From positions 1-43,576 of the forward strand of contig JAQTVW010000002.1 of assembly GCA_028706655.1 (NCBI GenBank): a stretch of 43,576 nt of DNA. Reading direction: 5' to 3'. This stretch comes from Dehalococcoidales bacterium (GTDB lineage Bacteria > Chloroflexota > Dehalococcoidia > Dehalococcoidales > RBG-16-60-22). The notes below the pieces were generated by a model, which was not told where the DNA came from, did not search any database, and was given only the letters and a program-made list of their open reading frames with translations. This document shows positions 20,441 through 29,142 of this stretch, one piece after another. Position 1 is the first letter of the stretch. Every line of letters starts with the position of its first letter. Made by a program: the position numbers and the translations under genes.

Positions 20441-20911
20441 TTACATCGTGCGGCGCGGGCGGTACTGGATGGCTTCCGCCACGTGGTTCGCCTTTATTAT
20501 ATCAGAGCCTTCCAAATCGGCAATAGTGCGTGCCAGCTTGAGGATGCGGTGGAAAGCACGTGCTGAAAGATAAAGCTGTTTCATGGCGGCTTTGAGCAGA
20601 CTCTGGGCGCTGTCCTCTACCGGGCAGAACTCGCGGATTTCCGCCGGCGTCATCTCGGCATTGCAAGTCTGGCGGCTGCCCCGGAAACGCGCGCTCTGGC
20701 GGGAACGCGCCGCCGTGACCCGCGCCTGTACCGCCGCCGAAGATTCGCCGCGCCGGCTGTCCGCCAGCTTGTCATAGTCCACCCGCGGCACTTCTACGAA
20801 AATGTCCACGCGGTCGAGGAAAGGTCCGCTGATGCGTCGCTGGTAGCGGGATATCAGCCCGGGCGGGCAGGTGCATTGCCGGACGGGGTCGCCGTAATAG
20901 CCGCACGGACA
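20441..20911 (-). pseudogene. comM: 3' fragment of comM/yifB (Mg-chelatase-like AAA+), last ~156 codons
   Basis: CPCGYYGDPVRQCTCPPGLISRYQRRISGPFLDRVDIFVEVPRV...ARAFHRILKLARTIADLEGS. The upstream in-frame residues (to 21025) are AT-rich island sequence. Confidence 0.85.
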
Positions 20912-22499
20912 TACGTGCGGAACACAATTGATGATTTTCAGCTTCATTTTCAATGTTATTATAGGGTAGGGTATTATTTTCGTCAAAAGCAAAGACGCAC
21001 CTGATAGCGGGATTCCCCTCATCATCTTTCCCTACTCTGACTTCCAATAACAGGTTTTCTATTACCGCTCGTTTAGTTTCAGGTGTAGCGTATTGAATGC
21101 TTTTATTGAGCTTGCCAAGAATAAACCCGATGTTTTCAAGTCGTTTCCTATATGCTTTTTCATTAGCTTGAGCATCGGTTAACGCACTTATATGTTTCTT
21201 TATTATTTCTCTTGAATGGACAATCTCCTCTAACTCCGAGTCCAATGCTTCTTTTGAAAATTGACCTTTAGGGTCAGCGTATAGACGAAGTAACCTCTTC
21301 TCAGACTCAATCAACTCTTCTAATCTTTTTTCAGCATCATCTATTTGTGCTCTATAATCATCATCGTTAGTTAATTCCAAACGAGTTTCAATTGCCATTC
21401 TTACAGTTTCAGGATTTTTAACGAAGTTTGTAATCTTTTCCCATACCCAATCTTCAAGGAGCTTCGCAGGTACGCTTGGGGAATCGCAAGCTTCCGATAA
21501 TAAGTTGCCCCTGTTACCATTTCTATTGCACCGATAGTATTGAAGCTCGCCATTTCTCGTTGAATGCGAACAATAGCCAGAATAAGAGTGTCCGCATATT
21601 TCACATTTCACGAGTCCTCTTAAAAGGTATAATCTTTTTGAATTTCTGTCTGCCCAAAGACAATGGTCTTTTAGATTATTTCGTGCTTTATTGAAAGTGT
21701 CCGAATCTACAATAGATGGACAGGTTGTTATGACTGGTGAATTAAGTCTTTTCTTACTTCTTTTTCCATAGACCCATTCACCTTTGTATGTTGAATTGCG
21801 AAGCATATTATAAACCCGTGCGGGACGCCATAACCTCGCTGTAGCTTTACCCCTGATTCCTCTTCCGTCTTTGCTATAACGTGTCGGTATTCCTAACGCA
21901 TTTAACTGTGGTGCTATGGAGTAACAGGTCATACCTTTTTCATTGACCCAATAGTATAGCTGACGGACTATTTTAGCTTCCTCTTCATTTATCTCTAGTT
22001 TTTTTGTGTCTGGATTTAATTGGTAACCGTACGGAATGATACCACCAGAGTATTGTCCGCTCTGAATTGCTTTTCTCATACCGTCTCGGCTTCTTTCCAT
22101 AAAAGTGTTTCTTTCCCATTCAGCGAAGGTGGAAGCCATTCCCAAATAAGCTTTACCCATTGCGGTAGTGGTATCAAAGGATTCGGTTACGGAAGCGAAT
22201 TGAATACCTAAATCTTCGAATTCAGCTATGGTATTATACATATGTCGGTTAGACCTAAAAAGTCTATCCAGCTTATAAACCAAGATAGCATCAAACAGTT
22301 TTGCTCTAGCATCATCCATCATTTTGGTTAAAGCGGGTCTTTTAAGAGTCGTACCAGAATACCCAGCATCAACATACTCTTCAACAATTGGGTATTCCTT
22401 ATCCGAGCAATATTTACGCAATCTCTCCACCTGATTTCCAATGGAGAAATTCTGAGCTTGCTCTTCAGTTGATACTCTTGCGTAAATAGCTGCTTTCAT
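20772..22499 (-). CDS. large serine recombinase (integrase); ORF reads through the left junction into host DNA
   Basis: N-terminal resolvase catalytic domain AAIYARVSTEEQ (Ser nucleophile), YKLDRLFRS. Recombinase domain YGYQL...; zinc-ribbon cysteines CEICGHSYSG...YYRC; coiled-coil region. Residues beyond ~533 are encoded by comM DNA in another frame. Confidence 0.9.
   Translation of the reverse strand: MKAAIYARVSTEEQAQNFSIGNQVERLRKYCSDKEYPIVEEYVDAGYSGTTLKRPALTKMMDDARAKLFDAILVYKLDRLFRSNRHMYNTIAEFEDLGIQFASVTESFDTTTAMGKAYLGMASTFAEWERNTFMERSRDGMRKAIQSGQYSGGIIPYGYQLNPDTKKLEINEEEAKIVRQLYYWVNEKGMTCYSIAPQLNALGIPTRYSKDGRGIRGKATARLWRPARVYNMLRNSTYKGEWVYGKRSKKRLNSPVITTCPSIVDSDTFNKARNNLKDHCLWADRNSKRLYLLRGLVKCEICGHSYSGYCSHSTRNGELQYYRCNRNGNRGNLLSEACDSPSVPAKLLEDWVWEKITNFVKNPETVRMAIETRLELTNDDDYRAQIDDAEKRLEELIESEKRLLRLYADPKGQFSKEALDSELEEIVHSREIIKKHISALTDAQANEKAYRKRLENIGFILGKLNKSIQYATPETKRAVIENLLLEVRVGKDDEGNPAIRCVFAFDENNTLPYNNIENEAENHQLCSARMSVRLLRRPRPAMHLPARADIPLPATHQRTFPRPRGHFRRSAAGGL
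20903..20911. repeat. left copy of the 9-bp att core GCACGGACA
   Basis: Identical 9-mer at 28084-28092. It sits exactly where ComM similarity and GC-rich composition end. Confidence 0.8.
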
Positions 22500-22551
22500 T
22501 TTGAATCACTAGCCTCAAGCCAAGGCAGCCTACCATAGAATCAGGCACGAG

Positions 22552-22722
22552 TCAACGCCCATTAGCTTTATTCTCCTCTGAATTTTCAAAGCTGGACATT
22601 AGTATCTTAAATACCCTATCTAACCGCTCCCCAGCATCAGGCACTTGGACATATTCCACCTTGACAACTTTCAAGGTGTTGATTCGCTTTCTCCTTTTCG
22701 TTACTTTTGTTTCTGTAGTCAT
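22552..22722 (-). CDS. possible 56-aa ORF upstream of the recombinase (MTTETKVTKRRKRINTLKVVKVEYVQVPDAGERLDRVFKILMSSFENSEENKANGR)
   Basis: Hand-translated and below the track cutoff. No clear SD. Its position suits an accessory or directionality factor, but the call rests only on the open frame. Confidence 0.25.
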   Translation of the reverse strand: MTTETKVTKRRKRINTLKVVKVEYVQVPDAGERLDRVFKILMSSFENSEENKANGR

Positions 22723-22757
22723 TATTATTTGCCCAAGTGCCTTCTTAATAAAATTGT

Positions 22758-23120
22758 CTAGTCCTGATAACCTATAATCCGAACTTGTATACCAAACTGG
22801 GTGAAGAAAGCCTTACCGCCGACTTTCTCAAGATTCTTTTCGTAGCTACAAACTAATATCTTTTGGACTGATGGGGGATACTGCAAGAGATTACGCATAT
22901 ACCTGTCTGCTTTCCCTTGCTGAATGTAAAACTCTGGTTTCTTATAATTAGTGGATTCATAGACCCTGATAAGTTCATTCCCACGATAAACCAGAATATC
23001 CGCACCGTCAGAATACATACCAGTAGACTCTGCTCTGTTTCCCTGCTTACGTTCCCACTCCTTTATCTTTTCTACCCTACGTTGTCCGATATTCCAGCTA
23101 TCAAGCTTTCTCTTGACCAT
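22758..23120 (-). CDS. hypothetical 120-aa protein (weak PD-(D/E)xK-like pattern)
   Basis: AAGGAG lies 9 nt upstream of the ATG at 23120. The segment GADILVYRGNELIRVYESTNYKK loosely resembles a nuclease-fold beta-hairpin. No firm family match by eye. Confidence 0.7.
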   Translation of the reverse strand: MVKRKLDSWNIGQRRVEKIKEWERKQGNRAESTGMYSDGADILVYRGNELIRVYESTNYKKPEFYIQQGKADRYMRNLLQYPPSVQKILVCSYEKNLEKVGGKAFFTQFGIQVRIIGYQD

Positions 23121-23359
23121 ACGTTTATTCTCCTTTCCTGTGGGGGGATTGATTATTCTATCCTTATCACAGGACTCATTATTTTTGCCTTATCTACAAT
23201 GGACTGAATAGCAGGATAACCAGCTACTAACCATTGTTGCTAGACGTACCTTCTACGTGTTACTAACCATATAAACCATCGGTTAGTAAACAAGAGCAGT
23301 TTGGAGCTAGTCTAGCTCTGAGCGTCCTCTAACCAGACTAGCTCCGCACGCTCACCAGA

Positions 23360-23530
23360 CTATGATTTGGGTTCGCTGGTATCAGTGTTAGGAGTGGTCT
23401 CTTTCTTCCGAGGGGTACGACCAGCAGGATATACCCTAAGCTCTATTCTGGTCTTACCACTTGAAGACAGTCTGATTAGCTCAGTCCCCTTTTTGCTCTC
23501 AACTTTGGGTGAGCCATTTTTCCTTGACAT
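23360..23530 (-). CDS. hypothetical basic 56-aa protein
   Basis: AGGAGG lies 7 nt upstream of the ATG at 23530 (the track ORF starts 7 codons earlier). MSRKNGSPKVESKKGTELIRLSSSGKTRIELRVYPAGRTPRKKE... Confidence 0.55.
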   Translation of the reverse strand: MSRKNGSPKVESKKGTELIRLSSSGKTRIELRVYPAGRTPRKKETTPNTDTSEPKS

Positions 23531-23688
23531 CGCTTGTCCTCCTTTCTCCAATACTTGGTCTAGACCTTACTGAAATTAAAACACTGTTTGAGGAAGTGCA
23601 CCAAACATTCAGCTTTGGACGTTTATAAGGAATAGAATGAGATTGATGGAATAAATGTTGAAATGGACGCTAAGAGGACTCTGTAATA

Positions 23689-24582
23689 CTAGACAGATTC
23701 GGAAATATTTGAATTATCTCTTGGGAATCCTTGACGCTTGGTTAGTCCTGATTGTCGCCACGAGTAATCAAGCTTATTTCTTACACGTTTTCTTTGGCGA
23801 TTCTTACTGTCATATAGTCTCTGATATTCTTGTCTTTCTTTTTGATGACTGTAATAGTAGCGGCTCCTGCGTTGTCTTGCCTTGATGACACTTTCCGATG
23901 GAATATCTAAACTGAAATTCTTGAGAATGTTAAAAGCATATTTAGCTTCTTTTCCTGTGATTGGGTCTTGGTTTGAAAGCACAAATAATAACTGACGTTT
24001 TGGGTCTTTCAGCTTGGTTTTTATGAATTCCTGAAGAGTTGGGGTAACTAACTTACCTTCCGAGTCAAAAGCGTATAGATTCTGGTTATATCCTGCCTTT
24101 GCCTTCATTAAACCTGTTTTCAAATACGCTAACCTGTCAGCTTGGTTTTTAGATATGGAAACCTGCCCCAAGATAGCATCGTAAAATTCCTTAGATGTTA
24201 ATTTCTTAGTGCTAAGCTCTTGGAGCTTTTTCGTCTCTATTTCATTCAATTTTTCTAAATCTTGTGTCGCAAGAAGATAACGAGCTGCCACTTCAATCCC
24301 TTGCTCATAATAGTCACTACGTGTGAATTTACCATCAGGAAGGAACGCTTTGTCCCAATACATCTGAGATTTCATTTCAGCTTTGTAATTGTTATCCCGT
24401 ATGTCAATAGCTCTATAACTATCGGAAAGAATCAGATAATAGAGTGGGTAACGTGGTCTAAGTCTAAGCAGACGCCTTGACAATACAATTGCATCTTCAA
24501 AGCGTTTTTTATTCCATAGAAAATCTATCGCTTGCTTGACTAATTCTGCCTCAGTATTTTTCTTATTACGTTGGTTTTTCAT
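23689..24582 (-). CDS. hypothetical 297-aa protein with an Arg/Lys-rich C-terminal tail
   Basis: Long ORF with island-typical AT-rich codon usage. N-terminal helical repeat-like segment (AIDFLWNKKRFEDAIVLSRRLLRLRP); C-terminal RQRRSRYYYSHQKERQEYQRLYDSKNRQRKRVRNK. No recognisable catalytic motif. Confidence 0.7.
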   Translation of the reverse strand: MKNQRNKKNTEAELVKQAIDFLWNKKRFEDAIVLSRRLLRLRPRYPLYYLILSDSYRAIDIRDNNYKAEMKSQMYWDKAFLPDGKFTRSDYYEQGIEVAARYLLATQDLEKLNEIETKKLQELSTKKLTSKEFYDAILGQVSISKNQADRLAYLKTGLMKAKAGYNQNLYAFDSEGKLVTPTLQEFIKTKLKDPKRQLLFVLSNQDPITGKEAKYAFNILKNFSLDIPSESVIKARQRRSRYYYSHQKERQEYQRLYDSKNRQRKRVRNKLDYSWRQSGLTKRQGFPRDNSNISESV

Positions 24583-24687
24583 AAAGCATAATTCACCAAG
24601 AAATGTGCTCCTGCAATTTTAACACCAAAATACTTATCATTGCATAGTAACGAAGCGAAGTAATAAATTATCCCCCCCGCCCTCTTC

Positions 24688-24722
24688 AATAAAAAAGACG
24701 CCCGCCCTTTCAGGGTGGCGTC
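24688..24722 (-). terminator. Rho-independent terminator downstream of the RM gene
   Basis: On the minus strand: GACGCCACCC-TGAAA-GGGCGGGCGTC followed by TTTTTTATT. A GC-rich hairpin in otherwise AT-rich DNA. Confidence 0.6.
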
Positions 24723-24970
24723 GTTGTGTTAGGTACGAATTTATTGAAGTAAAATCAGAAATTCAATTTAGCTTCGCAAATAAAGTGAAAATACGGCAAT
24801 TTATCCCTTTTTATTATACGGTTAGCTTTGGTAAATTATGCCGAAATGGGGCAGAAATAAGGTTTATTTTCTCTTTTTGATGGTGGCAGGAGCTTGTTTT
24901 GAAGCTAAATTCCCAACTGGCACGGGCATTTCTTGCCAAATTTCAAACTATTTTTCAAACGTTAGACCCG

Positions 24971-27628
24971 TTAAAATTCGGTTTTCTCTATCTTGTATAA
25001 ACTAAAGACAATATCATCTATTTGTTGAGTAACGCCTGCTATACTTCCCTTTAAAGCAAGCTCTTGGTCTGGGGCACAACCATTAAGTTTCTGGTTATAC
25101 TGTAATAAACTATCAACCAGATTCCCTATCTTAGACTGTATCTCTTCGGTGCAAGGTTTAAGTGGAAGTTGCTCTAGATAACCTTTTGATACATTGACCG
25201 TCAAATCCGCCTTATTAGTGAAACGATTTCTGAAATAGTAGTTCATCAAGTTTGAGTTTAACAGGGCGAGCACGTACCTAGCATCGAAACTCTTATCCTC
25301 AGTTTTCAGGATTATGTTATTGATGGAAGCAAAAGTGTAATATTGGCTTCGGTCTAAAGTAGCAACAATAGGGTCTAAGCCTCCGCTTATCCTACGAACA
25401 AGGATTTTTTCCTTAGCAAGGAAAATGCTTTCAGGTCTAGCCCTGTGTAATACCTTCCTGTCATAGAGAATGAACTTTTTACTTGGTATGATTCGATACC
25501 TATCAATATCCTTACCTTCAATGAATTTCTTATACTCTTCACCCAGTTTTTTATCGGTAATGTAATTTGCCTTACCTTTGGGAGTGACGATACCCTCAAT
25601 TATTTCTTCGCATATTTTACCGAGAAGTGTACATCCCTCTTCTATCTTAGATAACAATTTATCTGTTTTTTCATCCACAAATATGTTGAATGCTTTTAGC
25701 GGACTAGTGTCAAAATCAAGCTGAGGTAATTCGTTTACAATGAATTTGTTTGAAGTCAAATCTTGTATATCCGATATGACCTTCACCTTGTTAGATTCCC
25801 GTACCTTCTTATCCGCTTCTTTCCTGAGAATGATTACTATCGTTTCGGCTGTTACTTTCTCGAATTGACCTTTCCCTAAATCTACAATTTGTTCGATAGC
25901 ACAGTTATTCAATATAAAATTACGAAGAGGCTCATAGGTGCTTACTCTTAAAAGAGTGTTTGGAACGATGAAGCCAAGCTTCCCACCATCTGATAATCTT
26001 TCAATACCAGCTTCTATGAATAAAGCGAATGTGTTTACCTTTCCGAGTGCTGACTGATAATGTTTTTTGTAGTATCCTTTTTCTAATTCAGAAATAGCCA
26101 TACTACGAGTAAAAATATACGGTGGATTAGAAACAATTATATCGAAAGGTCTATTCTTTAGAAGCTTACTTAGAGAGACTTTTGGTGTATTGGTATCTTC
26201 TACTGAAGATAATGGATGCTCTGTTTCATAGATGTCCAAATCAAAGGTCAACTCAAGCTTTTCAAGGCTGTTACCTCCAACCACATTGAGCTTACTCGTA
26301 GGGTGGTCTAAGTCCTTTAATAGTAAGTTCATTACTGTCAACTGCGTTGCGAAGGGATTAATATCTATACCGAATAGATTCTTTTCTAATATCTTAGCGT
26401 GTATAAGTCCTTCTTCCCATCCCTCAGCAGTATATAGTTTTCGTAATCTATCGTAAGCCTTTATTAAAAAGCCACCAGAACCACAAGCTGGGTCAAGTAT
26501 CTTCTTATCAGGGGTAATATTTACTTCATTCAGAATATAATTGACTAGTAAGTCAGGTGTATAGAACTGCCCCAGTCTCTTTCGCTCTTCCCTAGATATG
26601 TGCCGCTCATAAGCATTACCAAGCACGTCCTTGCTTATTTTGGAAAAATCGTGCTCACCTAGCTTATCAAGTACGAAGTCAATGGTATCGGAATTCCAGT
26701 CAATATCCTCGAAATTAATTGAGTCAAATAAAGGCGATTTATATAGACCCTCAAAACGCTCACCTATTTCGTTAAATGCTATGCTCAGTATGTTACTCGG
26801 CTTCTCGACCATCTGACGCCATTTTGTTATTGCATCCTTAGAGAGCTTCGATTTGACGTGTCCCTTGTCTTCACAAATTCTGAGGAATAGAACTCGATTG
26901 ATTAATGTATAAGCACCTTCTCTGCATAGCTTGTCTATTAACTCAGGGTCAGAAACATCCATCTTTACGTCGGCTGCCCAAACATCAATTATTTGCTTGA
27001 ATTCAAGGTCAGTCTGATAACGAGCTTTGAACTGAGAGAGAAGGTCACTAAATAATTTTTCTCGACACTTGGCTAGGTCATCTATGAGAGTCTTAGCGGT
27101 AATGTTTTCTCTTAGGCTTTCGGCTTGTTCGCTGAGTTTTTTCGCTTCCTGAAGATGCTCCTTGCTAATAAGTTCTGACAACGCACTATAGAACTCAGGT
27201 AAATTTTTGAGCGAAGTCTCAAATAACAATCTGTCTTTAGGATTTGCAATCCCAGCCACGAAGGATTTGTAAATTCTAATCTCTAATCCATTAGTGAGCA
27301 TTACCCACTCAATACCTTTAAGGTAGGCGTAATTAAGCCCTTGATTCACGTGGTTATCTAGCTTCTCATCTAAATCTTTTGTTTCTATAAGAAGCTTTGG
27401 TTTATTATCGAAAATCAGAGCTATATCAGCCTTCTTATTCTCTACGTGATGTTCAAAGTCCATATCTTGCTGAGTGCTGTAACCAAGTAAGTTCAGCAAA
27501 GGAATGACTATCTTAATCTTGACGTTTTCCTCACAGGCACCTTTGGCTTTGCGGACGTATTTATCTACATCAAGATTAGCCAGCGATTTAATTTCTTTCT
27601 GTGCCTGTTTCAATAGATTATTCCTCAA
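24971..27628 (-). CDS. type IIG restriction-modification enzyme (fused PD-(D/E)xK nuclease, N6-adenine methyltransferase and target-recognition domain)
   Basis: N-terminal nuclease-like KADIALIFDNKPKLLIETKDL (D...ExK). Methyltransferase motifs GQFYTPDLLV, ILDPACGSGGFL, LFGIDINPFA, IVSNPPYIF. Long C-terminal TRD-like region. TTG start with no SD. Confidence 0.85.
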   Translation of the reverse strand: MRNNLLKQAQKEIKSLANLDVDKYVRKAKGACEENVKIKIVIPLLNLLGYSTQQDMDFEHHVENKKADIALIFDNKPKLLIETKDLDEKLDNHVNQGLNYAYLKGIEWVMLTNGLEIRIYKSFVAGIANPKDRLLFETSLKNLPEFYSALSELISKEHLQEAKKLSEQAESLRENITAKTLIDDLAKCREKLFSDLLSQFKARYQTDLEFKQIIDVWAADVKMDVSDPELIDKLCREGAYTLINRVLFLRICEDKGHVKSKLSKDAITKWRQMVEKPSNILSIAFNEIGERFEGLYKSPLFDSINFEDIDWNSDTIDFVLDKLGEHDFSKISKDVLGNAYERHISREERKRLGQFYTPDLLVNYILNEVNITPDKKILDPACGSGGFLIKAYDRLRKLYTAEGWEEGLIHAKILEKNLFGIDINPFATQLTVMNLLLKDLDHPTSKLNVVGGNSLEKLELTFDLDIYETEHPLSSVEDTNTPKVSLSKLLKNRPFDIIVSNPPYIFTRSMAISELEKGYYKKHYQSALGKVNTFALFIEAGIERLSDGGKLGFIVPNTLLRVSTYEPLRNFILNNCAIEQIVDLGKGQFEKVTAETIVIILRKEADKKVRESNKVKVISDIQDLTSNKFIVNELPQLDFDTSPLKAFNIFVDEKTDKLLSKIEEGCTLLGKICEEIIEGIVTPKGKANYITDKKLGEEYKKFIEGKDIDRYRIIPSKKFILYDRKVLHRARPESIFLAKEKILVRRISGGLDPIVATLDRSQYYTFASINNIILKTEDKSFDARYVLALLNSNLMNYYFRNRFTNKADLTVNVSKGYLEQLPLKPCTEEIQSKIGNLVDSLLQYNQKLNGCAPDQELALKGSIAGVTQQIDDIVFSLYKIEKTEF

Positions 27629-27649
27629 AATTGGTATTCAACTGGACAT

Positions 27650-27678
27650 ATTATACAACATTGCCTAACCCGAACAGT
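27650..27678 (-). promoter_or_regulatory. candidate promoter for the RM gene
   Basis: Perfect TATAAT on the minus strand (27655-27650), 21 nt upstream of the TTG start. The -35 is only weak (ACTGTT/TTACTG). Confidence 0.3.
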
Positions 27679-27776
27679 AACGCTCGCCGCTTGTTCTGGC
27701 AAAATTCTGAAAACTCACTTTTATTCTGGCACGCCACTAGGCACACCTACTACCCTTCAGTCGTGGGGGATTTTGA

Positions 27777-27893
27777 TTACTTCTTGTTTTTCTTATTCCT
27801 CTTACGCTCTTTGATGGATTCGTCTATATAAGCAAAGACAAAACAGACCACCACCACACAGAGGAATAGACAGATAATCTCCCCAATAGCCAT
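27777..27893 (-). CDS. 38-aa hydrophobic peptide with a polybasic tail (MAIGEIICLFLCVVVVCFVFAYIDESIKERKRNKKNKK)
   Basis: Hand-translated and below the track cutoff. One predicted TM helix plus a Lys-rich C-terminus; weak SD (GGCAGG). Confidence 0.3.
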   Translation of the reverse strand: MAIGEIICLFLCVVVVCFVFAYIDESIKERKRNKKNKK

Positions 27894-28056
27894 AGCCTGC
27901 CAAGCCTATAGCAGTGCCATTGGGAATACAAGCCGACTTTAGTAATACGCCAAGGGAAAAATTGACTTGACTAATGCTTCATTCAAGTAGAAACTAGCTC
28001 TTTGGTTACCCAAACATAAGCACCGAGTTTGCTCTTGACTTTCAACAACCCTACGC

Positions 28057-29142
28057 TCAATTCCAATTTTGTAATTGCATTCTGCACGGACAGGGGTTCA
28101 TTGCGCCGACGAGCATGAAGCTGGCGGGGAAGGTGACTCTCCCCTGGGCGCGACTGATGGTTACGGTTTTATCTTCCAGCGGCTGGCGCAGCAGTTCCAG
28201 CAGGGCGTTGCCGAATTCAGGCAGCTCATCGAGGAACAGGACGCCGCGGTGGCTGAGGCTGATTTCCCCCGGCTTAGGCCAGTGCCCGCCGCCGACCAGC
28301 CCGGCGCTGGAAATGGTGTAATGCGGGGCGCGGAAAGGGCGTTGCTGGACGAGCGGAGTATCCGCCGGCAGCAGCCCGCTGACGCTGTAAATCTTGGTCA
28401 CTTCGAGGGCTTCATCATTCGTCGGCGGGGGCAGTATCGAGGGCAGCGCCCGCGCCAGCAGGGTTTTGCCGCTGCCGGGCGGTCCGCTCATGATAAGGTT
28501 GTGCCCGCCTGCCGCCGCTACTTCCAGGGCGCGTTTGACGTGCTCCTGCCCCTTGATTTCAGCAAGGTCGGTGACCGGTGTTAATAAAGCGGCGGTATGG
28601 TGAGTGCCGTCTGACTTGTAGGCAGAGATGGTTTCCTCACCGCGGAAATGGCTGATAAGGCGGGTCAGCGAAGCGGCCGGGATGATGCGGGCGCCATCCA
28701 CCAGCGATGCCTCGCGGGCGTCTGCCTCCGGGACGATAACTTCCGGGATGCCCTGCTGGTAAGCGAGCCCCACCATCGGCAGGATGCCCGTGGTATGGCG
28801 CAGGTTGCCGTCCAGCGAAAGCTCGCCGAGGAACACGGTCCGGGAAACATCAGCGGTCAACTGTCCTGAGCTGAGCAGGATGCCCATGGCAATCGGCAAG
28901 TCATAAGCCGGGCCGGCTTTCTTGAGGTCGGCGGGTGCCAGGTTGACCACGATGCGTTTCATGGGAAAGGTGCCGCCGGAGTTGCGGATGGCGGCGCGGA
29001 CGCGCTCTTTGGCTTCCTGTACTGCGGTATCCGGCAGACCGACGATGGTAAACGAGGGCAGCCCGCTGGAAATATCCACTTCCACTTCCACAATCGCTCC
29101 GTCCAACCCGACCACGGCACAACTTCTTACCTTTGCCAGCAT
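28057..29142 (-). pseudogene. comM: 5' fragment of comM/yifB: 353 native codons plus an 8-codon island-encoded tail
   Basis: [23 protein letters not shown].., Walker [15 protein letters not shown], Walker [11 protein letters not shown]. ComM similarity ends at ..VGAMNPCPC, followed by RMQLQNWN-stop. Confidence 0.88.
28084..28092. repeat. right copy of the 9-bp att core GCACGGACA
   Basis: Identical to 20903-20911. It encodes the Cys-Pro-Cys of ...AMNPCPC on the minus strand. Confidence 0.8.

Follow-up and report, generated by a model that had tools for sequence, protein, structure and literature searches.

A block of four genes on the minus strand (22552 to 24582) of a 43,576-nucleotide stretch of DNA from a Dehalococcoidales bacterium (contig JAQTVW010000002.1; hereafter "the window") is the conserved backbone of an integrative element that is driven by a large serine recombinase (LSR) and inserted in a comM gene; the restriction-modification (RM) gene on the far side of the block is exchangeable cargo. 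Its probable function is that of a module for control, excision and maintenance of the element. The roles proposed below for each individual protein are more tentative, and should be read as possible rather than probable. An earlier note, made from the sequence alone, had presented the block as a candidate defence or accessory module carried by the island.

The block comprises four open reading frames (ORFs), whose coordinates match exactly those previously given: p297 (23689..24582, 297 aa), p56a (23360..23530, 56 aa counted from the ATG), p120 (22758..23120, 120 aa) and p56b (22552..22722, 56 aa). Re-reading of the sequence ahead of p56a and p120 found the claimed Shine-Dalgarno sequences, AAAGGAGGAcaagcgATG and GGAAAGGAGaataaacgtATG, respectively. 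All four ORFs are genuine genes under purifying selection, as their ratios of nonsynonymous to synonymous substitution (dN/dS), calculated pairwise by the Nei-Gojobori method against homologues from other loci, are low: 0.10-0.41 over all homologue pairs, and 0.10-0.30 in every pair that includes a window copy. This applies also to p56b (dN/dS 0.1-0.3), which the earlier note listed as a possible ORF only; no other gene of the block is as conserved. It is apparently uncalled as a gene in the source record, since the window copy was not returned by protein search. Scans of Pfam, PHROGs, PADLOC and NCBIfam gave nothing significant for any of the four proteins, in agreement with the previous failure to recognise a family. 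Rfam yielded no match at the gathering threshold over the whole window and a single chance-level match in the island; no tRNA genes were found, and no RNA-seq run containing the block was found.

The evidence that identifies the block as a backbone comes from comparison with related elements. Among 5.8 billion proteins, we detected 12 homologues of p297, 5 of p120 and 19 of p56b, and the neighbourhoods of these homologues define about 13 independent related elements, mostly metagenomic, in which the block recurs beside the recombinase (L001-L003, L006-L012, L017 and L019 are among the loci read). At every locus long enough to show the layout, the string has the same order: a non-coding block, a p297-type gene, a gene for a small PC4-like protein with an RNA hairpin after it, a variable slot, p56b, a promoter-like element and the LSR gene. 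All genes are co-directional, and the string ends at the LSR. Encoded in the variable slot, in different combinations, are a Zn-ribbon or HNH protein, a member of the phrog_4756 family (390-463 aa), a basic protein of 118 aa (p118) and/or p120. Beyond p297, the gene content changes from element to element. In the window, this position is occupied by a type IIG RM enzyme of 885 aa (24971..27628, minus strand; Pfam N6_Mtase, Eco57I, TaqI_C and HSDR_N_2; PADLOC REase_MTase_IIG); L002 carries a NERD protein, an ion channel and a metallo-beta-lactamase-fold protein, and L001 and L003 carry HNH and unknown proteins. DNA similarity to the window follows the same division: it covers 24741..23539 in L001 and 24802..23603 in L002 (that is, the non-coding block and p297), then p56b, and leaves out the RM gene. 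A string that remains constant beside the LSR while the genes on its far side change is what one expects of a backbone with exchangeable cargo.

The limits of the element are well defined, and the island of about 7 kb previously proposed is real. GC content falls to ~39% in the island (roughly 21.0-28.0 kb), compared with ~58% in the flanks, and the flanks are the two halves of a gene of the Mg-chelatase/ComM type. A 9-bp attachment (att) core, TGTCCGTGC as read on the minus strand, is found at both junctions: at 28092..28084, where the left end of the element meets the N-terminal part of comM, and at 20911..20903, where the right end meets the C-terminal part. The distance between the two copies sets the length of the element at 7,181 bp; sibling elements range from ~6 kb to >11 kb. 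In-silico joining of the flanks restores an intact ComM ORF of 506 aa that reads ...NPCPCGYYGDP..., and places the insertion point at the conserved CPCG codons. Contigs from the source metagenome that carry other, uninterrupted comM genes part from the window exactly at 28084. One low-depth contig from the source sample joins 20911 to 28163 (23-nt side) and may represent an empty or rearranged site. Copies ~99% identical to the island are present in landfill, bioreactor and groundwater metagenomes (runs X1-X4). The choice of target is not unusual: among predicted site-specific LSRs, 12.4% have Mg-chelatase homologues as their target (Durrant et al. 2022; PMC10083194), and prophage WO (sr1WO) likewise inserts in the Mg-chelatase/comM gene (PMC9203015). 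The left end is non-coding (27629..28083, minus strand) and includes a conserved P' arm, GAATGCAATTACAAAATTGGA, that is common to L003.

The LSR gene (20772..22499, minus strand) encodes the domains expected of such an enzyme, with matches to Pfam Resolvase (the catalytic domain; E = 3e-42), Recombinase (E = 2e-16) and Zn_ribbon_recom (the zinc ribbon; E = 2e-13). The same backbone is combined with two types of LSR, only ~30% identical to each other, of which type 1 uses comM as its target and type 2 inserts elsewhere; the point at which one type is switched for the other is the LSR start codon. None of p56b, p120 and p118 sorts with the LSR type. The backbone is reshuffled in modules, including between LSR types. 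A groundwater contig exposes another module boundary: it matches the 3' end of p297 without difference and diverges at 23640, just past the p297 stop codon. The possibility that p118 might be a distant homologue of p120 was considered and rejected, as the hhalign probability was 12% and the two genes lie side by side in L019.

Of the four genes, p56b has the closest association with the recombinase. It adjoins the LSR gene in 13 out of 13 independent loci, with both LSR types, and is the only gene besides the LSR found at every locus. Its 19 homologues have an invariant motif, QVPDA..RL.RVFKIL; a profile of the family gave no meaningful match to PDB sequences. The gene is always directly upstream of the LSR promoter and is absent from the p120-containing regions with tyrosine integrases described below. 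The promoter-like element, defined by an alignment of 11 loci, lies at 22527..22555 on the minus strand and consists of TTGACT, a 17-nt spacer and TAGGCT, with TGG before the latter. The stop codon of p56b sits within the -35 hexamer, and the 60 nt that separate this stop codon from the LSR ATG are conserved in the 11 loci, irrespective of LSR type. The same arrangement is found in the more distant locus L017.

The product of p120 had been described as faintly similar to PD-(D/E)xK nucleases, and structure prediction agrees. An AlphaFold2 model of good quality (predicted local distance difference test, pLDDT, 86; predicted template modelling score, pTM, 0.80) has an alpha-beta-beta-beta-alpha-beta topology (H2-25, E29-36, E39-46, E49-57, H68-79, E86-91), and p120 is accordingly predicted to belong to the PD-(D/E)xK fold class. 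The best match in a Foldseek search of PDB was the EcoT38I restriction endonuclease (E = 0.016, TM 0.46), followed by the Cap4 nuclease; in BFVD, only unnamed phage proteins were matched, at E >= 2.6e-3. A HMMER profile search among 1.84 billion representatives retrieved 77 relatives, and p120 itself has no significant Pfam match, nor did its family profile find a meaningful match among PDB sequences. Among 75 relatives, five match Mrr_cat_2 (best E = 7.9e-6), two NERD and one BsuBI_PstI_RE. Seven positions are nearly invariant in these 75 proteins: D41 (75), E55 (74), T57 (71), N58 (75), R15 (73), S92 (74) and N96 (73). Such a density of conserved polar residues argues for an enzyme; its activity is uncertain because the motif is non-canonical.

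Members of the p120 family are found in approximately nine independent contexts, eight of them beside integrases and one in a defence-type island. A trio formed by p120, a p56b-like gene and an LSR gene recurs in L017, where the p120-type protein is only ~40% identical. Two further p120-type genes, those of L016 and L018, belong to prophage-like regions and have tyrosine integrases in their vicinity; the L018 region also encodes a prohead protease. In L018 a Zn-ribbon gene follows the p120-type gene, and in L016 the Zn-ribbon is fused to the p120-type domain. Pattern scans of 2.9 million viral contigs of IMG/VR for p297, p120 and p56b found none, the wider p120 profile being too diverse for pattern scanning. 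Likewise, tblastn searches of phage (50,697 genomes) and plasmid collections gave no match for p297 or p120.

The small basic protein p56a is a shortened relative of an 80-aa PC4-like protein encoded by sibling elements. Alignment of the two with hhalign (probability 76%, E = 2e-5) covers the N-terminal two-thirds of the 80-aa protein, whose C-terminal helix is missing in p56a. The 80-aa protein in turn resembles Pfam PC4 (PF02229), a family of single-strand DNA binding proteins, at a level below threshold (E = 0.0016; 18.4 bits, compared with a cut-off of 25); a profile of the PC4-like family had no meaningful match among PDB sequences. The copy of p56a in L011 is 89% identical, and the dN/dS of the gene is ~0.25.

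Directly 3' of p56a lies a 15-bp hairpin (23303..23345, minus strand), which follows either p56a or the PC4-like gene in eight loci (the window, L001, L002, L006, L007, L008, L010 and L011). All 120 of its 120 aligned pairing cells hold standard pairs. Eight pairs vary, seven by G-U wobble and one by a double compensatory change. The hairpin is a sense-strand RNA structure, since its G-U wobbles would be mismatches on the opposite strand, and it could serve in processing, in attenuation or as a protein-binding site. The spacer that separates p56a from p120 (23121..23359, minus strand; 240 nt) is structured and rich in repeats, with a fold z-score of -5.9 relative to shuffled sequence. We considered that this spacer might be the scar of a deletion of a large Rep gene. 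This view was revised: L011 and L008 have the short layout too, and what the window lacks is just the Zn-ribbon gene that occupies the position of the spacer in L008. Within the spacer, upstream of p120, lies the 10-mer CTCTTGTTTA (23296..23287, minus strand). Of the nine independent contexts examined (L019 was left unchecked), seven have it ~50-280 nt upstream of a p120-type gene: besides the window, it is carried by L003, L008, L011, L013, L016 and L017, which include elements with tyrosine integrases, whereas L018 lacks it. Its role may be that of a promoter, an operator or a cassette boundary.

For p297, the AlphaFold2 model (pLDDT 67) contains the two features anticipated from the sequence: a helical N-terminus, which is a confident domain of tetratricopeptide repeat (TPR)-like helices (residues ~10-125), and a basic, Arg/Lys-rich C-terminus, also helical. 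The basic tail is the part common to more distant versions of 321 aa (L003) and 281 aa (L007). The dN/dS of the gene is ~0.2. Foldseek returned generic TPR matches only, none significant (E > 0.08), and p297 is absent from GTDB representative genomes. An RRNPP-type receptor and peptide pair, made of p297 and p56a, was rejected: p297 has no helix-turn-helix (HTH) match and only about three TPR-like hairpins, and p56a is basic and hydrophilic, without the hydrophobic segment of a signalling peptide.

Upstream of p297 is a conserved non-coding block (24583..24960, minus strand) that aligns with L001 and L002, which carry other cargo. Over 270 nt it contains an inverted pair of AATTTAGCTTC (arms at 24765-24775 and 24901-24911), the palindrome TTGGCA-N11-TGCCA(A/G), a terminator-like hairpin and a G7 run, all kept in L001 and L002. 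This region is a candidate regulatory region or origin. The terminator-like hairpin (24691..24722 with its T6 tract, 24697-24722 without it; minus strand; followed by the G7 run) stands between cargo and backbone and shows paired changes in L001 and L002. It had been assigned to the RM gene as its terminator; however, siblings that lack the RM gene keep it, and it is therefore part of the backbone.

How the module might work can be outlined from what is established for serine integrases. LSRs integrate unaided, and need a recombination directionality factor (RDF) for excision; the RDF binds the junction of DBD2 (DNA-binding domain 2) with the coiled coil in its cognate LSR, thus switching it to recombination between attL and attR. 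The known RDFs of LSRs have neither a fold nor a gene order in common, and their number includes moonlighting proteins, either single-strand binders or exonuclease-like (PMC12286644, PMC11795197), which makes the small unannotated proteins of a minimal LSR element plausible RDF candidates. In the mechanism we propose, a long transcript starting upstream of p297 would run through p297, p56a, p120 and p56b into the LSR gene, and the LSR would also be made alone from its own conserved promoter. The LSR alone would favour integration of the circular form, and its co-expression with a backbone factor by read-through would favour excision. The best candidate for such a factor is p56b, because of its universal linkage to the LSR; it might be an RDF, or it might regulate the LSR promoter, whose -35 hexamer contains the p56b stop codon. 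Possibly a small nuclease-fold enzyme related to the Mrr/Hjc class, p120 might process element DNA after excision or help in maintenance. A nucleic-acid-binding function, derived from a PC4-like single-strand binder, is conceivable for p56a, which would possibly bind the adjacent hairpin, and p297 could be a TPR scaffold or regulator whose basic tail binds nucleic acid and acts on the repeats upstream of its own gene. That the small proteins might be a directionality factor and a regulator had been offered as a fallback in the earlier note. Synteny now favours this idea, extended to housekeeping of the element; homology does not add to it, as none of the four proteins has sequence homology to a known RDF or regulator, and the clear homology that the note had named as refuting its main proposal was thus not found.

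Several observations weigh against a module of this kind. An excised circle or attP junction was not seen in the assembled contigs, and no replication, transfer or packaging gene was recognised in the window copy. The behaviour of p56b is unexpected for a cognate-specific directionality factor: it is 65-75% identical to the window copy across LSRs that are only ~30% identical, and does not cluster by LSR type. Co-variation with the cognate integrase, which is expected of a specific RDF, is thus absent, and such indifference argues against a classical, cognate-specific RDF; the pattern would fit a regulator of the conserved LSR promoter equally well. In p120, the lysine of the canonical ExK motif is replaced by T57 to give ExTN, no fold match reached E < 1e-3 in Foldseek searches of PDB and BFVD, and the gene is not universal in the backbone; furthermore, a distant relative, P0042, lies in the defence-type island (L013) with no recombinase nearby. 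The middle, alpha/beta part of p297 is poorly modelled (pLDDT 41-62). Lastly, the biochemical roles given above for p297, p56a, p120 and p56b are inferred.

The alternative closest to the original proposal is that the block, or at least p120 and p56b, is defence or counter-defence cargo like the RM gene. The nuclease fold of p120 is compatible with such a role, and P0042 is surrounded by DruA, DUF6119, DUF87 and DUF6602 genes. Moreover, the prophage-like regions where p120-type genes lie near integrases are places where moron genes often gather, and nucleases (RM, NERD, HNH) abound in the cargo of sibling elements, even if PADLOC gave weak HNH matches only when that cargo was compared with known defence systems. 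We consider this alternative unlikely. The four proteins have no match in PADLOC-DB v2 at E <= 1, where the RM enzyme alone is matched; the block holds a conserved position next to the LSR, and it is on the other side that genes vary; p56b and p297 were never found outside this element family in the searches run; and a single context of the p120 family is of the defence type. Still less likely is that p120 and p56b form a toxin-antitoxin or addiction pair, with a nuclease-fold toxin and a 56-aa antidote. The two genes are indeed small, co-directional neighbours, 35 nt apart, and the pair recurs in L003, L008, L011 and L017. However, p56b is equally conserved where p118 stands in front of it and p120 is lacking (L001, L002, L006, L007, L010), L019 has p118 between p120 and p56b, p120-type genes exist without p56b, paired or fused with a Zn-ribbon (L016, L018), and scans of Pfam, PHROGs, PADLOC and NCBIfam matched neither protein to any family of toxins or antitoxins. 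A residual doubt is a defence or addiction role for p120 alone.

Two other explanations concern the element as a whole. One is that it is a helper-dependent phage satellite, in which the block would sense or hijack the helper and the RDF would come from the helper phage. Its very small size, the lack of structural, transfer or (in the window copy) replication genes in library scans, the phage-type proteins of its siblings (phrog_4756, excisionase-like HTH, HNH or Zn-ribbon), the p120 relatives in prophage-like regions and the fact that no backbone protein co-varies with LSR type would all be understandable in a satellite. Relatives of p297, p120 and p56b are nevertheless absent from the 2.9 million IMG/VR contigs or 50,697 phage genomes searched, no capsid, terminase small-subunit or packaging-site feature was recognised, and no candidate helper phage is known; hence we regard a satellite as improbable, albeit compatible with a control, excision and maintenance module, with which it overlaps. 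The other explanation, that the block is a functionless, decaying remnant of a larger element, is very hard to sustain. It is true that the window copy lacks the Rep-like, Zn-ribbon and p118 genes of siblings, that p56a is shorter than its 80-aa relative, and that the LSR and Rep genes of L006 are split. Yet the four ORFs and the LSR gene of the window are intact and under purifying selection, the short layout (p56a, spacer, p120, p56b, LSR) recurs in L011 with 74-89% amino-acid identity, and the nearly identical copies come from three kinds of environment.

With a module for control, excision and maintenance as the preferred reading, a bolder version can be envisaged, which we consider a long shot: the block would be a self-contained control apparatus, made of a generic p56b switch serving both LSR types and of Rep-independent processing or propagation of the excised circle by p120 and p56a-type proteins. 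If true, this would be the first Chloroflexota-specific family of mobile elements with its own unrecognised mobility mechanism, possibly with the lifestyle of a phage satellite.

Additional observations concern the recombinase gene and its surroundings. The LSR ORF crosses the att site into comM, so that its length depends on the state of the element: 575 aa after integration, 565 aa in the circle as rebuilt. Integration alters the last 35-45 residues, and the integrated form has an Arg/Pro-rich tail from out-of-frame comM sequence; this swap might affect the activity or direction of the enzyme. Inside the 3' end of the LSR gene there is an outward-facing promoter-like site (20958..20986, minus strand; TTGACG, 17 nt, TATAAT; 11 of 12 consensus positions), which points into the comM 3' fragment in the integrated state and into the left end and cargo in the circle. 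Its TATAAT is also present in L006, L009 and L010, but overlaps Tyr-Asn codons.

Certain loci show departures from the usual arrangement. In L019 (5700-5856), the recombinase end abuts the N-terminal part of comM, in reversed orientation. Judging from this locus, the comM site apparently accepts the element both ways round, a behaviour that would suit a core whose central dinucleotide, for example CG, is self-complementary. L003 (11465-13060) has a second, divergent LSR gene placed tail-to-tail with that of the element and overlapping its 3' end, followed by tyrosine-integrase genes; this suggests tandem or nested insertions at the comM site. In L006 (8429-11841; a Chloroflexota metagenome-assembled genome, MAG, GCA_042582845.1), the LSR and Rep-like genes are each split in two ORFs and no N-terminal half of comM was seen upstream, which marks L006 as a family member in decay.

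Other products of sibling elements are an HTH protein that resembles excisionases, and HNH or Zn-ribbon proteins of phage type. The phrog_4756 protein (E = 2.5e-36; 390-463 aa) is encoded at L001:11685-13076, L002:7122-8507 and L007:1425-2597, and has homologues in large phages of Vibrio, Aeromonas and Shewanella. Its motifs ELDY..HPN, K...IN and PVHDS look like motifs A, B and C of A-family polymerases, a resemblance that has no Pfam or PDB support; searches of PDB sequences with the Rep-like family profile and with the single Rep-like sequence of L002 gave no meaningful match. The named hosts of related elements are one Chloroflexota bacterium and one Dehalococcoidaceae MAG, and the family appears confined to Chloroflexota-type hosts. 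An archaeal host, suggested by the label "Thorarchaeota" on one homologue (L019), was rejected: the label is probably a binning artefact, because the contig is essentially the element plus a bacterial-like comM fragment, 64% identical to the comM of L003.

Serine-integrase elements that target comM are common, but for most of them the proteins governing direction have yet to be identified, and such proteins are wanted as tools for genome engineering. The four candidate partner proteins described here, one of them invariably attached to the integrase gene, provide a short list in which to look for a new integrase partner or regulator. They also define a previously unannotated family of mobile elements in Chloroflexota, a phylum about whose mobile elements little is known, and a family of small nuclease-fold proteins that tracks integrases and has an unusual motif at its active site. 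The cargo in this element is the RM gene, not the unannotated block.

An LSR-driven island in comM with an RM gene is a known kind of element. In turn, the backbone gene set, the linkage of p56b to the LSR, the ExTN nuclease-fold family and the conserved hairpin are unannotated in any library searched. Small mobilisable transposons driven by LSRs, such as Tn4451/Tn4453 (TnpX) and Tn5397 (TndX), offer a parallel: they have 6-7 kb, one LSR, a few small proteins of unknown function and one cargo gene, are excised as circles and show promoter activity at their ends. Compared with them, the window element has no recognised Mob/relaxase-like gene, its insertion is specific for comM, and its small proteins have no similarity to known ones in the libraries searched. 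With regard to PD-(D/E)xK nucleases, p120 has the core fold of Mrr/restriction-endonuclease-like and Hjc proteins, including their size (~120 aa), an Asp at the start of strand 2 and a Glu in strand 3; in contrast, its family has Thr-Asn in place of the ExK lysine (71-75 of 75), and p120 has no significant match in Pfam, PDB sequences or Foldseek. Elements and prophages that target comM (prophage WO sr1WO, and those catalogued by Durrant et al. 2022) share with the window element the LSR domains, the short att core and the comM halves as flanks. They differ in that the window element has only ~7 kb and no phage structural genes, and p297, p56a, p120 and p56b have no annotated relatives and gave empty searches of phage and plasmid collections. 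The RDFs known for LSRs include SprB of SPbeta, Xis of phiRv1, the single-strand binder gp25 of TG1 and the exonuclease-like gp47 of Bxb1 (PMC12286644, PMC11795197). Like them, the proteins of the block are small and encoded by the element, and p56a and p120 would be of the same kinds as the single-strand-binding and nuclease-like RDFs. Unlike them, p56b stands in fixed synteny with its LSR and is nearly unchanged across two LSR types.

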